Virus record (IMG/VR): IMGVR_UViG_648276647_000011
Length of the DNA stretch: 8,509 nucleotides
Origin: a virus
Lineage: Duplodnaviria; Heunggongvirae; Uroviricota; Caudoviricetes
Direction: 5' to 3' (one strand)
A model generated the notes under the pieces. That model saw nothing but the letters and a program-made list of their open reading frames with translations, searched no databases and was not told where the DNA came from. The position numbers were made by a program, and so were the translations under genes. Below, piece after piece: positions 3,187 through 7,973 of the stretch (positions are counted from its first letter, which is position 1; the number at the start of each line of letters is the position of its first letter).

Positions 3187-5856
3187 ATGAAATCTGACAT
3201 CAGAAAAGAGATTATTAACCGTCTTATCCGTGATTACAACTTCAAAGAAGAAAATAACTACCTCCGGTATGGTGTTTGTCCGCAATGTGGAAAGAAAGAG
3301 TTGTTTACCAGCCTTGAAAGGCCGTACATCGTACACTGTGGGCGCGAAAATAAATGCGGTACAGACCTGCTGACCAAAGAACTTTACCCGGATGTGTTTT
3401 CATCATGGTCAGATCGTTATATCAGCACGAAAGACGAGCCATATGCAGCGGCGGCAGCTTATCTTCAGGAAGCGCGCAATATTGCTGTGGGGCCACTGAA
3501 GGGCGCATTTACTCAGGAGCGATACCAGGACAAGGAAAACGGCGAACAGGCCGCTACTGTGCGTTTTACGCTGGCTGACGGCGTGTGGTGGGAGCGCATC
3601 ATAGACCGGCCGGAACGTTTCGCGCGTAAGGCGAATTTTTCCGGCAGCTACAAGGGGTTGTGGTGGGCTTATCCGGGAGCTGATTTAAGCAAGGCCAACG
3701 AAATCTGGATTTGTGAGGGCATCTTTGATGCCATCAGCCTTAACCAGAATGGCATTGCAGCCGTTTCTGTCATGTCTGCCGTGAATTATCCTGATAAGGC
3801 GCTGGAAGAACTGGCAAAGCTGTGCGGAGATAATCCCCGTCCGGTTATTGTGTGGGCGCTGGATAACGGGCGTGCGGGTGAGCGTTACGCGAAAAAACAT
3901 TCAGAACGCAGCGCCGAAGATGGCTGGAGAACGGCGGCGGCGTTACCGGGTAAAAACAGCAATAAACGCGACTGGAATGATTTACACGTCGCCGGAAAGC
4001 TGCGTGGCCATGATGTGAAAAGATACCGTCATTACGGTGATTTATTGCTGGCGAAATCTCCGAGAGATAAGGCGCTGATAATATTTTCCTTTCGTGAGCG
4101 GAAGGAATTTCATTTTACTTTTGATAACCGTGTTTTCTGGTTCAAACTGGACATTGAGCGCTATATGAAGGCTGTTGAGCGTGCCAAGAATGAGCGAAAT
4201 GTTGATGAGGATGAAGCGCGCAAAATTGCACTTAAGGAATCTGGTGCAGTAAAAGAAATCGCAAACTGTAACCCAGCGCCGCTTTATTACATTCGAAATA
4301 ATGACACGGATGAAGCATGGTATTACTTCCGTGTTACGTTCCCGGATGGTGCTACGGTGAAAAACACCTTTACATCAGGACAATTAACATCCTCATCTGA
4401 ATTTAAAAAACGCCTGTTACACGTGGCAAAAGGCGGTATTTATACTGGAACGACTACGCAGCTTGACGCATTAATAAAAAATGACCTTCCCGCAATAAAA
4501 GAGGTTATTGGTCAGGATTTTATCGGATACAACAAGGCGATTGGGGCATGGCTGTTTAATGATATTGCTGTTTACAAGGGAAAAACTTATGAAATCAATG
4601 ACGAGGATTATTTTGAAATTGATGGCATAAACGCAAAACCATTAAGCGAAAAACCCACATTACAGATTAACTACAAAAAACCGGATGAGTTTACAGAGTC
4701 TTGGGTGGAAGATCTCTGGCTGGCTTTTGGTGAAAAGGGAATTATTACCCTGGCTTTCTGGTTGGGCTCCCTGTTCAGCGAACAAATCCGAGATAAAGAA
4801 GAATCCTTCCCCTTCCTTGAAGTCACCGGGGAGCCCGGAACGGGTAAATCAACATTGATTGATTTTTGCTGGCGGTTGTGCGGTCGTGACAACTATGAAG
4901 GCGTTGATCCAACCAAAGGATCAGAGGCGGGCTGGAAGCGTACCTTTGGACAGGTCGCCGGATTACCTGTTGTTCTGATTGAAGCGGACCGGGGAGACAA
5001 TGCGCAAAAAAGAGGTGCGTTTGACTTCGATAACCTGAAAAGTCTCTATAACGGCGGTGGTATCGGCGTTCGTGGTGTTAAGGCCAACAATAACAACACC
5101 TATGACCCGGATTTTAAGGGCGCTATCGTGATTGCGCAGAATGCGCGGGTAAACGCCTCTCCGGCAATTATTGAGCGCCTGATACGTATATACACCGATA
5201 AAAAACGCCATTCACCTGATACCCGCCTGGCGGCGAGACGGCTGGAACTTTACCCCGTCGAGAAGGTATCTGGGTTTATTCACCGAGCGGTAAGTCAGGA
5301 ACGGGCGATTATGCAAACGTTCCTAGAAGTATCTCCAGCTGAAACGGAACGCCTTTGCGGATGCGAAAATATTCGCCATCCCCGCATCGCTAAAAATCAC
5401 GCACAACTTATCGCGCTGGTCAGAGCGCTGAAATGCGTTATTGATATCCCGGATGAATGGCTTGATGCCACATGTCTGGAACTGGAACAAATGGCAACAG
5501 CGCAGGTTAAAGCGGCGGCGGCTGATTTACCGGAAGTGATGGAGTTCTGGGAGGCGTTCGACTTCCTGGACGGCATAACAAAATACGGTGTAAACCACTA
5601 CGGCAAGGGATGCCGTGAGGGGATTGCTATCAGTATTCCGCAACTGGCACAGGCTGCCGCCATTCACCGCGTGGAGATCCGAACTGACCGCGAAATGATT
5701 GAGTTGCTCGGAGCCGGACGTTCCCGACCTTTGACAGGCCGCAAAACCATTCGTAGTGAGGTGTCCAGACAGGCAAACGCCGGAAGAGGGGTCGCCGAGG
5801 CCAGAGAGCCGGAAGTACTGAAATGCCGGATATTCAGTTACAAGGAGGGGCGCTAA
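3187..5856 (+). CDS. phage/plasmid primase-helicase of the P4 alpha type: N-terminal zinc ribbon, TOPRIM primase, P-loop NTPase (helicase)
   Basis: Long ORF. Cys cluster CPQCG...HCGRENKCG (nt 3277-3360). TOPRIM-like ICEGIFDA (nt 3709-3732) and LDNGRAGE. Walker A GEPGTGKST (nt 4828-4854). ATG 3187 with SD GGTGGAG (3172-3178) is preferred over the track GTG at 3163, which lies inside the terminator stem. Confidence 0.88.
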   Translation: MKSDIRKEIINRLIRDYNFKEENNYLRYGVCPQCGKKELFTSLERPYIVHCGRENKCGTDLLTKELYPDVFSSWSDRYISTKDEPYAAAAAYLQEARNIAVGPLKGAFTQERYQDKENGEQAATVRFTLADGVWWERIIDRPERFARKANFSGSYKGLWWAYPGADLSKANEIWICEGIFDAISLNQNGIAAVSVMSAVNYPDKALEELAKLCGDNPRPVIVWALDNGRAGERYAKKHSERSAEDGWRTAAALPGKNSNKRDWNDLHVAGKLRGHDVKRYRHYGDLLLAKSPRDKALIIFSFRERKEFHFTFDNRVFWFKLDIERYMKAVERAKNERNVDEDEARKIALKESGAVKEIANCNPAPLYYIRNNDTDEAWYYFRVTFPDGATVKNTFTSGQLTSSSEFKKRLLHVAKGGIYTGTTTQLDALIKNDLPAIKEVIGQDFIGYNKAIGAWLFNDIAVYKGKTYEINDEDYFEIDGINAKPLSEKPTLQINYKKPDEFTESWVEDLWLAFGEKGIITLAFWLGSLFSEQIRDKEESFPFLEVTGEPGTGKSTLIDFCWRLCGRDNYEGVDPTKGSEAGWKRTFGQVAGLPVVLIEADRGDNAQKRGAFDFDNLKSLYNGGGIGVRGVKANNNNTYDPDFKGAIVIAQNARVNASPAIIERLIRIYTDKKRHSPDTRLAARRLELYPVEKVSGFIHRAVSQERAIMQTFLEVSPAETERLCGCENIRHPRIAKNHAQLIALVRALKCVIDIPDEWLDATCLELEQMATAQVKAAAADLPEVMEFWEAFDFLDGITKYGVNHYGKGCREGIAISIPQLAQAAAIHRVEIRTDREMIELLGAGRSRPLTGRKTIRSEVSRQANAGRGVAEAREPEVLKCRIFSYKEGR

Positions 5857-5858
5857 AC

Positions 5859-6862
5859 ATGCCGATCAGAAAGATGCATGATGGGCGGTGGCTGCTCGAT
5901 ATCAGGCCATGCGGACGTAAAGGGAAGCGCATCAGAAGAATATTTGACAAAAAATCGATAGCTACAGCAACTGAACGGTACATCATAGCGAACGCCGAAA
6001 AGCGCGAGTTTATACAGGGCTATCGTGACCGGAGAACGCTTAGCGATTTACTGGAATTGTGGTGGGTCTATCACGGTCAGCACAGGCGAAAGGCAAACAC
6101 GGATAAACAGCAGCTTGGCAAAATTATTAATGAGCTTGGAGCTGACATGTTTGCGGTGGAACTCGACAAATTAAAAATCATTGCATGGCGATCGCAGAAA
6201 ATTGCAGAAGGATTAAAGCCGTCCTCAGCAAACAGATACATGAACAGATTATCGGGGATGTTTACAGCCCTGAAAAAGATCGGTTTGTGGGATGCAGAGC
6301 ATCCGGTTCGTGGTATTCCTGTTCTTTATGTAAAGCAGCGGGAAATGGCCTTTTTATCAAAAAACGAGGTCACATTGTTGCTTGACGGGCTGAATGGAGA
6401 TCAACGAAGGGTTGCGCTCTTGTGTCTTTGTACCGGAGCCCGCTGGAGTGAGGCCAGCAGATTGTATGGAGAGCAAATAGTTCATAACAGAATAACGTTT
6501 CTGGAAACCAAAAACGGTAGAAAAAGAACGGTGCCTGTGTCGCAGGAAATATGCGATGCCGTAAAAACAAAAGAAACCGGGCGACTGTTTGATGTGAAGT
6601 ACAGAGAGTTTTGCCGGGCATTAAAAAAATAAAACCCGATTTACCGAGGGGGCAGGCTGCGCATGTATTGCGGCATACATTCGCCAGTCACTTTGTGATG
6701 AACGGTGGCAACATTCTTGCGCTACAAAAAATCCTTGGGCATGCGACAATTCAGCAGACTATGGCATACGCACATTTTGCACCGGATTATCTGGCAGATG
6801 CCATGAGATTTAACCCGGTAGCCAACATAGTGATCACCGAAGAAAAAGAGCCAGCAGAGTAA
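5859..6862 (+). pseudogene. int: tyrosine integrase, P2 Int-like, interrupted by a single-base frameshift at an A7 run (6623-6629); may be a pseudogene, a sequencing error or a recoding site
   Basis: Two consecutive ORFs (frame 0 5859-6632; frame 2 6611-6862) that together align without gaps to recalled P2 integrase (e.g. KPSSANRYMNRLSGMFTAL, CTGARWSEASRL, IKPDLPRGQAAHVLRHTFASHF, QTMAYAHFAPDY). Box II HxxR and the presumed catalytic Tyr (nt 6767-6769) are only in the second frame. ATG 5859 lies 2 nt after the primase stop, with AGGAGGGG at 5843-5850. Confidence 0.85.
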
Positions 6863-6891
6863 CCCGCAGAACGCTACATTCACAGCAAAAG

Positions 6892-6918
6892 AGGTCAGTT
6901 TCCCGCTGACCTTTTTTG
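6892..6918 (+). terminator. rho-independent terminator downstream of int
   Basis: Stem AGGTCAG (6892-6898), 7-nt loop, stem CTGACCT (6906-6912), followed by T-run 6912-6917. Confidence 0.75.
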
Positions 6919-7110
6919 TTGGCCAGAACCAACGGTAACAGCAATGCAATGGTGGCCATATTGCAGTGGTGCCGCCATCAATTTTTTGCTCCCCCTGATT
7001 ATCAGAAAGAGTCAAACAGTGGTGAGATACATTTCAATCACAGAGAGTTAATGAAAGTGAGACAGAGTGAGTGAGTTTAATTAACATTTTAAAGGGTCGC
7101 GCTAAAGTTT

Positions 7111-7430
7111 GGGGGGGGATGCGCAAAGCGGTTACAACGGTTACAAATTTAAAATTGCTTATTTTTGTATTATATATCAATATATTATAACTGGTCCGAT
7201 GAGTTACAATAGCGGTTACAACGCGGTTACATGTAACCGTTTTGTTAGGTTACAGGCGGTTACAGGTTAAGTTTTTAATTGATTGATAATAAAGTGCTTT
7301 TTGAAACCTGTAACCGTTGTAACCGCAGTGTAACCGCAAAGCGGTTACAAACAATATCCATTAAAATCATGTTTTTAAGTGGTGTTTTTGACTGTTGTAA
7401 CCGTTGTAACCGCTTTGCGCACCCCCCACC
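7111..7430. repeat. iteron array (heptamer GGTTACA/TGTAACC, 13 exact copies plus 1 variant) bounded by 36-bp inverted repeats; putative replication origin
   Basis: Inverted repeats 7111-7146 and 7395-7430 are 34/36 identical as reverse complements. GGTTACA at 7130, 7139, 7214, 7225, 7248, 7258, 7343 and AGTTACA at 7202. TGTAACC at 7232, 7309, 7318, 7329, 7396, 7405. Perfect palindrome GGTTACATGTAACC at 7225-7238. Hairpin TGTAACCGC-AAA-GCGGTTACA at 7329-7349. AT-rich blocks at 7147-7200, 7265-7308 and 7350-7390. Confidence 0.6.
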
Positions 7431-7653
7431 GGATTATGAGGCAGAGCCCCAAAACAACTGGTCTAACCTATAACAAAAATGCAACATCAATCATTGATTT
7501 TTTGGGGCTGTCAGTCACGGGGAGTTGCCCTGTTGTTTGGCAGAAAAATGAAGTATGTACATGCGCGGCGGGGATGGTAAAAAACGTAATACACGCGGCG
7601 CAGTTGCCATAAAAAATTTCTCAAAAGCACTCTTTTTGACGCTATTGTTCATC

Positions 7654-7680
7654 TGCACAAAAGTGCACAAATTTGCACAA
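7654..7680. promoter_or_regulatory. three direct TGCACAA repeats at exact 10-bp phasing; candidate operator or activator-binding array
   Basis: TGCACAA at 7654-7660, 7664-7670 and 7674-7680, so one helical turn apart. A fourth copy lies at 7746-7752. A 10-bp perfect palindrome CCAGTACTGG sits nearby at 7711-7720. Confidence 0.4.
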
Positions 7681-7973
7681 TTTTTTAGAGTAACTTTTTG
7701 CCCATCCGGCCCAGTACTGGCGCGCCCGGAGGGCGATTTCGTGCGTGCACAAAAAACGGTGAGTTTTTCGCGCGCAGGTGACGGGGGAACAGCACGCGTT
7801 TCAGGGGGGTAAATTACATTTTCGCTAAAGACTGCGGGAATGCCCGACCGGGTTAGTTTTATCGCCAGCCAGAGCCGTTCTTACGGCAAGAGAGAACTGA
7901 TACGGGGAATGTGACGAGTGAGCATGGGAACGGTGCGCCTGTGCGTAATACGCGGCGACTGCTGCGGGTTTAT

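Follow-up and report, generated by a model that had tools for sequence, protein, structure and literature searches.

A conserved iteron module, putatively a replication origin, in an Escherichia coli satellite of P2-type phages and its link to a phiCTX-type primase-helicase

Introduction

In P4, a satellite of P2-type phages, the alpha protein unites a Toprim primase, a P-loop helicase and a C-terminal DNA-binding domain and binds the type I repeats of ori and crr. According to the published description, an origin located just 3' of the pri/rep gene, with iteron sets flanking an AT-rich region, has been demonstrated experimentally for the Staphylococcus aureus pathogenicity islands (SaPIs) and for the Escherichia coli phage-inducible chromosomal island (PICI) EcCICFT073, for which plasmid replication from a pri-rep-ori segment was shown, its AT-rich region lying between two sets of iterons (PMC6092414). 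Here, a stretch of 8,509 nucleotides from a tailed virus (IMG/VR record IMGVR_UViG_648276647_000011, hereafter the window) was analyzed, which is part of an integrated element of ~12.5 kb located between gcd and hpt in E. coli. This element is a satellite of P2-type phages and encodes an 889-residue primase-helicase of the family phrog_1139. It harbors a 320-bp module of GGTTACA iterons that is likely to be the replication origin of the satellite, read by the C-terminal domain of the primase-helicase, which is of the phiCTX type, with integration host factor (IHF) as a likely helper.

Primase-helicases of the family phrog_1139 replace the rolling-circle initiator gpA of P2 in many P2-like phages and drive widespread enterobacterial satellites. 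No definition of an origin for this family was found in the literature searched, nor was a description of the module found in searches on the heptamer, on satellite iterons and on the phiCTX origin.

Results

GGTTACA iterons are clustered between inverted arms

The heptamer GGTTACA occurs 14 times in the window, where dinucleotide-preserving shuffles give an expectation of 0.86 and a maximum of 4. Thirteen of the 14 copies are found within 7130-7411, on both strands. An array of 14 heptamers had been described in the original prediction; 13 of them are exact, and the fourteenth site is the one-mismatch variant AGTTACA (7202-7208). Thus 13 exact copies and one variant of a single short word are packed into 320 bp of non-coding DNA. 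The extended consensus of the iteron is CGGTTACA, and the k-mer scan revealed no second site cluster elsewhere in the element. The module is composed of the following parts:

7111-7430, both strands: whole iteron module, putative origin; 14 sites, three AT-rich spacers and inverted ends; layout kept in 20 loci
7111-7146, plus strand: left arm with a G8 tract, GCGCAAAGC and two plus sites (7130-7136 and 7139-7145) 9 bp apart; 20 of 20 loci have such a ++ pair at the end, spaced 8-9 bp
7147-7193, both strands: AT-rich spacer 1, 87% A+T, candidate unwinding region with the IHF consensus TATCAATATATTA at 7175-7187 (plus); block invariant among E. coli relatives
7202-7264, both strands: inner left cluster with AGTTACA at 7202 (plus) and GGTTACA at 7214 (plus), 7225 (plus), 7232 (minus), 7248 (plus) and 7258 (plus)
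7266-7304, both strands: central AT-rich spacer, 80% A+T, with the IHF consensus TATCAATCAATTA at 7276-7288 (minus); separates mostly plus from mostly minus sites
7309-7349, both strands: inner right cluster with sites at 7309 (minus), 7318 (minus), 7329 (minus) and 7343 (plus)
7351-7394, both strands: AT-rich spacer 3, 73% A+T, with a conserved AAAATCAT box
7395-7430, minus strand: right arm with two minus sites (7396-7402 and 7405-7411), GCTTTGCGC and a C6 tract

The two arms are inverted repeats of 36 nt that match at 34 of 36 positions, each with two sites and a G8 or C6 tract, exactly as had been predicted. The palindrome GGTTACATGTAACC at 7225-7238, which is made of the sites at 7225 and 7232, and the hairpin at 7329-7349 with its 9-bp stem were likewise found to be exact. 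The predicted palindromic character does not hold for the whole unit, which is no true palindrome: its ungapped identity to its own reverse complement is 42%, and the order of its sites, +++++-++---+--, is asymmetric and of fixed polarity. AT-rich DNA (87%, 80% and 73% A+T) lies between the sets of iterons. The segment 7147-7200, predicted to be almost pure A/T, is indeed AT-rich (81.5% A+T vs 55% for the whole window), although this wording was a slight overstatement; 7147-7193 reaches 87%. Two exact matches to the IHF consensus (WATCAANNNNTTR) were obtained in the window, and both are located in the module, in the first and the central spacer, in opposite orientation.

Folded as single-stranded DNA, the module gives -87 kcal/mol (z = -12.6). 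Such a favorable energy follows automatically from the inverted sites; in this model, the extrusion of a hairpin or cruciform is possible on energy grounds. An Rfam scan gave no match in 7000-7600.

The layout is conserved across genera

Relatives were taken from species-representative genomes and assemblies, and each locus (L001 and following) was scanned for clustered k-mers. In E. coli relatives with modules of 73-79% identity all site positions are kept while the spacers drift. Strain STEC313 (L005) carries GGTCACA at 12 of 12 positions and not a single GGTTACA, and this concerted change at all copies fits a single sequence-specific reader protein.

The layout is shared by 20 loci, in which the module measures 286-338 bp, contains 10-14 sites and has the same polarity relative to the strand of the primase gene. 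These loci belong to satellites of Escherichia, Salmonella, Yersinia, Providencia, Proteus, Klebsiella, Enterobacter, Xenorhabdus and Pectobacterium and to two full P2-like phages. The first half begins with the ++ pair (8-9 bp apart), followed by a spacer of ~63 bp and three to five inner sites that include a back-to-back palindrome. In the second half, a central spacer, often with an IHF consensus, is followed by about three minus sites, one plus site 15 bp further on, a spacer of ~51 bp and the -- pair. An IHF consensus is present inside the central spacer of 11 of 19 modules, among them that of phiCTX. The word itself varies between elements: GGTTACA, GGTCACA, CGTTACA, CCTTACA, ATTACA, GGTTACT and GGTAAT were found.

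The module lies directly 3' of the primase gene in at least seven related satellites (L006, L007, L011, L013, L017, L035 and L036), and in the two phages it is unlinked. In Escherichia phage ESSI2_ev239 (L023) the module, with the word C[A/G]TCACA, is located 4.5 kb upstream of the primase gene, past the integrase. Clusters of TGACGATG were detected downstream of the primase in Paraburkholderia (L012). A simple k-mer scan gave no clear cluster in the distant relatives from Pseudomonas, Methyloversatilis and Thiotrichaceae (L015, L016, L019-L021).

In some Providencia satellites, two or three modules with different words are arranged in tandem (L009, 7771-8673; L017, 7850-8345). In both, a CGTTACA module adjoins a primase that carries the matching residues DVLR (see below), and complete or partial GGTTACA modules follow it, in L009 also precede it. 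These tandem modules could be scars of a switch in specificity, or a means of being replicated by the initiator of another element.

The primase-helicase and its C-terminal domain

The proposed initiator and its relevant parts are encoded as follows:

3187-5856, plus strand: primase-helicase, 889 aa, Toprim and P-loop NTPase, phrog_1139, proposed initiator
5521-5853, plus strand: predicted C-terminal winged-helix-like domain, residues 779-889
5812-5823, plus strand: codons 876-879 (E-V-L-K), co-varying with the word; they immediately precede the Cys-Trp that is conserved in the last beta-strand

The match to phrog_1139 covers the full length of the protein. A search with the C-terminal 250 residues alone gave 9 matches and was too shallow, so the full-length protein was used instead, by which 848 protein clusters were obtained at E <= 1e-10 among the candidates scored. 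The residues 686-889 were modeled with AlphaFold2 from an alignment of 23 sequences; the model shows a helical bundle and, C-terminal to it, an H-b-H-H-b-wing-b unit (mean per-residue confidence, pLDDT, 91.6); modeled alone, the last 111 residues reached a pLDDT of 93.3 and a predicted template modeling score (pTM) of 0.85. For the C-terminal domain, the SaPI Rep protein was the best structural match obtained. A Foldseek search against the PDB gave no significant match and did not recover the origin-binding domain of P4 alpha, and a sequence search of the full protein against solved structures gave only a chance P-loop match.

In the original prediction this protein had been regarded as a homologue of P4 alpha, which is not borne out. 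A tblastn search of 50,697 phage records yielded 41 matches, none of them to P4; primases of the phiCTX, RSY1 and Smp131 type were returned. By BLASTP, only 27 residues (Walker A) and 95 residues (Toprim) were aligned with alpha, and a profile of the C-terminus matched that of alpha with a probability of 0.2%. P4 alpha matches Zn_Ribbon_Prim, Toprim, D5_N, DUF5906 and Pox_D5, the latter being its C-terminal origin-binding domain; in the window protein only Toprim_2/Toprim_3 were found in the domain search, DUF5906 stayed at 17.7 bits, under the cutoff of 27.6, and Zn_Ribbon_Prim, D5_N and Pox_D5 were not detected. Beyond the Toprim and Walker A motifs the two proteins share no detectable homology. 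The analogy to P4 is good (see below), the claim of homology is not.

The word co-varies with residues of the last beta-strand

The word changes together with the four residues (x1-x4) that precede the conserved Cys-Trp of the last beta-strand at the C-terminus of the primase-helicase; in the window protein, x2 is V877 and x4 is K879. Co-variation was compared for the primase and for the second tyrosine recombinase of the element (int2, see below). The following pairs of x1-x4 and word were obtained:

EVLK, RVLK, EILK, DVVK, EVFK, EVIK: GGTTACA; ten loci, several clades
DTLK: GGTCACA; L005
ETLK: GTCACA; L035
DTFR: C[A/G]TCACA; L023 (phage)
DVLR: CGTTACA; L009, L017
EVVR: YGTTACA; L036
EVIE: CCTTACA; L033
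EVQH: ATTACA; L008, L010
ERLK: GGTTACT; L031
STVK: GGTAAT; phiCTX

A change of x2 from Val to Thr is paired with T to C at position 4 of the word in three separate clades, and a change of x4 from Lys to Arg with G to C or Y at position 1, again in three clades. Between the Providencia primases of the CGTTACA and the GGTTACA type, seven residues are type-specific, four of which are located at 871-876. Based on these pairs we propose that x2 and x4, which occupy alternate positions of the last beta-strand, help to set the word that is read. Taken together, the cross-genus layout, the concerted change of the word and its co-variation with the C-terminal tip of the primase support the predicted iteron array that is read by a protein with a specificity of its own.

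Comparison with P4, SaPI/PICI and phiCTX origins

The type I word of P4, GGTGAACA, resembles GGTTACA, and in P4 as well as in the window module short repeats occur in either orientation, those that form pairs being 9 bp apart. In addition, P4 crr directly follows the alpha stop and is followed by attP and int, which is the same order as primase, module and int2 in L006. P4 differs in that ori and crr are both needed and lie 4.5 kb apart, crr being a direct 120-bp duplication, whereas the window element has one module of two opposed halves. The P4 octamer TGTTCACC does not occur in the window; in this respect the heptamer is distinct, as predicted.

With the SaPIs and PICIs, the window element shares the one-direction layout from int and alpA to the primase; SaPI Rep, as noted above, gave the best structural match to its C-terminal domain. 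Its initiator, however, belongs to a different family, that of phiCTX, and its module differs from the published description of PICI origins: instead of two simple sets it has three spacers and 12-14 sites, arranged quasi-palindromically in a fixed order. GGTTACA is absent from the supplements checked for the published E. coli PICI origin.

In phage phiCTX, the module coincides with the annotated 'region 3 containing R3 repeats' (NC_003278 35100-35390; in L024 at 12122-12395, which corresponds to about 35107-35380), which lies between attP and cosR. This region shows a 12-site layout of the same polarity, with spacings of 9, 65, 11, 11, 9, 66, 12, 10, 12, 54 and 9 bp, and two annotated IHF sites are located in its two large spacers. 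The phiCTX primase is of the same family and 41% identical. Differences are the word, GGTAAT, the distance of 4.4 kb between module and primase gene and the annotation merely as repeats. The shared layout suggests that the R3 region is the replication origin of phiCTX; no published assignment of this kind was found in the searchable literature, which does not reach the original papers of the 1990s.

In viruses with superfamily 3 (SF3) helicases, namely SV40 with its large T antigen and the papillomaviruses with E1, origins are palindromic, with initiator sites in inverted groups around AT-rich DNA. By analogy, the inverted groups of the module would suit two helicase rings that assemble head to head. 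These viruses infect eukaryotes and their sequences are unrelated, and in the window protein DUF5906 scored below threshold.

The satellite and its distribution

From left to right, the element encodes a P4-type integrase, a 350-aa protein, AlpA, a C4-type antisense RNA with an Icd-like gene, small open reading frames (ORFs) and the primase-helicase, followed by int2, a P2-Int-like tyrosine recombinase, the module, a small ORF, Ogr/Delta, two ORFs, a P2-family major capsid gene and MazEF. The capsid gene and MazEF lie beyond the right end of the window and were read from the full-length relative L001.

Of 5,426 complete E. coli genomes, 66 carry the module. It was always chromosomal, in one colinear piece and one orientation, with no annotated feature under it, and it is present in a single copy per genome, always inside the same satellite. 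No matches were obtained in the plasmid and phage collections. Apparent second 'places' in BLAST searches are the inverted arms that match one another: the exact run between the arms is 33 nt in L002, for which two places were reported, and 27 nt, under the megablast word size, in L001, for which one was reported. A dispersed mobile repeat, which the original prediction had named as the outcome that would speak against it, was thus looked for and not found.

Upstream of the module, Rfam matches above the gathering score were obtained for isrK (1771-1852, 52 bits) and the C4 antisense RNA (1878-1965, 75 bits), together with a weak c4-a1b1 target (1758-1810). They are located directly upstream of the Icd-like ORF, and the region 1771-1965 looks like an antisense-RNA immunity module of the P1/P4 type. 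The satellite L001 has a capsid gene of its own in the region 11626-13607, for a major capsid protein of the P2 family (423 aa, PF05125, E = 3e-73) that is extended by ~120 aa at its N-terminus; the gene is preceded by that of a 236-aa protein without family match and followed by MazEF. In L005, L006 and L029 a P2-capsid-like gene is located at the left end instead. An own capsid gene is unusual for a P4-style satellite.

The neighboring recombinase gene and flanking repeats

A recombinase gene separates the primase gene from the module in the window:

5859-6862, plus strand: int2, second tyrosine recombinase gene, frameshifted, not part of the origin; between primase gene and module

Near 6623, where the 98%-identical L001 has A8, a deletion of 1 nt leaves A7 and breaks the gene into two ORFs, 5823-6632 and 6611-6862; a sequencing error, decay of the gene and phase variation at the homopolymer are conceivable causes. 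In Providencia and Proteus the module adjoins the 3' end of the primase gene, but the int2 homologue is found on the opposite strand, 2.5-3.5 kb upstream of that gene. No int2 homologue was found within the fetched flanks (4-5 kb on each side) in L008, L010, L012 and L036. Because int2 is distant or absent in many relatives and the module adjoins the primase 3' end in at least seven satellites, the module goes with the primase and not with int2.

Between the int2 stop and the module (6863-7110, 250 bp) several GTGAG/AGTGAG repeats are present at 7020-7075. Since the module lies near an integrase gene in the phages, in phiCTX beside attP, this segment could by analogy be the remnant of an int2 attachment site. 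Directly to the right of the module there is a perfect 10-bp inverted repeat, AGCCCCAAAA and TTTTGGGGCT (7445-7454 and 7500-7509), with a gap of 45 nt, the left arm of which is also present in L003, the closest aligned relative. Further 3', and 5' of the next ORFs, three direct TGCACAA repeats (cTGCACAAaagTGCACAAattTGCACAAtttttt) are found at 7655-7685 with a small hairpin at 7663-7678. This triple repeat also occurs in the distant satellite L031 and may be an operator or a late-promoter element.

Discussion

Several lines of evidence argue for the module as the likely origin of the satellite. The word is present in 13 exact copies where 0.86 would be expected, between arms that match at 34 of 36 positions; its sites are kept while the spacers drift, and they change in concert. 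Furthermore, the layout is maintained across genera, the word co-varies with residues of the primase-helicase, the spacers contain IHF consensus sequences and there are precedents in P4 and the PICIs. From these sequence comparisons we infer the following course of initiation. The 889-residue primase-helicase would bind the 14 (C)GGTTACA sites via its predicted winged-helix-like C-terminal domain, with V877 and K879 helping to choose the word. As the left and the right sites point in opposite directions, the initiator may assemble in two opposed groups. IHF would bend the DNA in the AT-rich spacers, upon which the spacer at 7147-7193, the central spacer or both could melt. The helicase would then be loaded and the Toprim domain would prime synthesis, probably leading to bidirectional theta replication after induction, as in P4.

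A number of observations weigh against this interpretation. The module contains no DnaA boxes, nor are these enriched, and in the window it is located 1.25 kb 3' of the primase stop with int2 in between. No module was found within the fetched flanks of the primase gene in the P2-like prophages L026-L028, L032 and L034 and in phage RSY1 (L025). Concerning the co-variation, phiCTX (STVK, GGTAAT) violates the x2 rule, and a rough clade-level Fisher test for x2, calculated by hand, gave ~0.02 with few independent events. In the satellites, the positions that distinguish the two types lie in an unbroken tract from about primase codon 868 through the module, so that linkage contributes and the co-variation may there in part stem from one recombination tract. 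In phage ESSI2_ev239, whose module is 4.5 kb from the gene, linkage alone is not a sufficient explanation of the pairing; the E. coli pairing, with int2 between gene and module, is not so easily explained by linkage either. Finally, the window protein reads K-C-R-I-F (5824-5832, residues 880-882) where the family has a near-invariant K-C-W-x-F. The same Arg is found in the 97%-identical protein cluster P0010 with 1,031 member sequences, indicating that the near-invariant Trp beside the proposed specificity patch has been replaced in a common E. coli lineage.

Several other functions were considered for the module. With a tyrosine recombinase gene ending 250 bp upstream and 36-nt terminal inverted repeats bounding ~320 bp, it resembles an invertible switch, in which int2 would flip the 248 bp between the repeats and toggle the downstream genes, as FimB/FimE do on fimS. 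We rejected this model, which is very improbable, on the basis of the fixed orientation: a single orientation was found in 66 E. coli genomes, and the asymmetric pattern has the same polarity in 20 loci. Moreover, int2 is not near the module in L008, L010 and L036, is 5 kb off in Providencia and is frameshifted in the window, and at least 12 internal copies of one word are not a trait of invertible elements. int2 might also use the array as arm-type sites of an attP or as a site for multimer resolution. In P2-type phages, both attP arms hold direct repeats in pairs and IHF sites lie in between, an arrangement that the module resembles, and the module is found near an integrase gene in two phages and next to int2 in E. 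coli. It is, however, intact within integrated elements and therefore not the site of crossover, and in phiCTX separate annotations place the attP core and its R1/R2 repeats upstream of the module. The same word GGTTACA occurs with int2 proteins of only 51% identity (L001 vs L003), and modules exist without int2 nearby, while the word tracks the primase C-terminus. int2 is thus a poor candidate for the reader of the sites; its arm sites and attP were rejected as it is unlinked or absent elsewhere, and we give a recombination site little chance.

A role in packaging, as a cosB-like array for terminase and IHF by which the satellite would use the terminase of its helper, appears similarly unlikely. 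The cosB of lambda combines R sites with an IHF site, and the phiCTX module, which has annotated IHF sites, lies ~170 bp from cosR. Yet the words differ within one host genus (GGTTACA vs GGTCACA in E. coli, three types in Providencia) and track the satellite's own primase rather than a helper function. The module is found at the primase 3' end in satellites, and no such cluster was detected around the portal and terminase genes of the fetched full P2-like prophages. Plasmid iteron arrays also act as operators and partition sites, and the array could accordingly be an operator or a centromere-like site at which another small DNA-binding protein acts in transcription control, handcuffing or partition. 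Weak promoter-like hexamers overlap the module (7081-7108, plus; 7314-7286, minus), and the co-variation was compared only for the primase and int2. On the other hand, the number of these hexamers does not exceed that in shuffles, the neighbors of the module differ between elements, no par genes were seen and the primase-helicase family is the sole constant partner found, so that such a role is improbable as well, though somewhat less so than packaging or recombination. A miniature inverted-repeat transposable element (MITE) or a chance low-complexity repeat has next to no probability: terminal inverted repeats and small size would fit a MITE, but the 66 carriers among 5,426 E. coli genomes have one locus each, which lies within the same satellite throughout. 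As the second 'places' are self-matches of the arms, the plasmid and phage collections gave no matches and the site count is far above chance, we rejected this reading.

From P4 and the SaPIs/PICIs it is textbook knowledge that a satellite can have an iteron origin next to its initiator gene, and the putative origin described here extends this knowledge and does not overturn it. To our knowledge, three aspects are new: the 12-14-site layout common to satellites and P2-like phages, including the phiCTX R3 region; a natural series of matched pairs of word and residues; and tandem modules of different specificity in some satellites. More speculatively, a module of ~300 bp with 12-14 sites of fixed polarity might be the common origin design of the whole phrog_1139 family, comprising P2-like phages with the phiCTX R3 region as well as satellites, with a specificity set by a two-residue x2/x4 code and with satellites that carry tandem modules (L009 and L017) being replicable by the initiator of a co-resident phage or satellite. 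We hold this broad generalization to be rather doubtful. If it were true, origin specificity would be predictable from sequence and could be re-engineered, and the tandem modules would represent origin piracy.

A conserved and recognizable module would enable annotators to mark origins in these elements and, if it acts as an origin, would explain the R3 repeats of phiCTX. The matched pairs of initiator and origin, with at least seven words, would serve studies on the evolution of origin specificity, and likewise studies on how satellites and helpers escape or make use of one another's replication.

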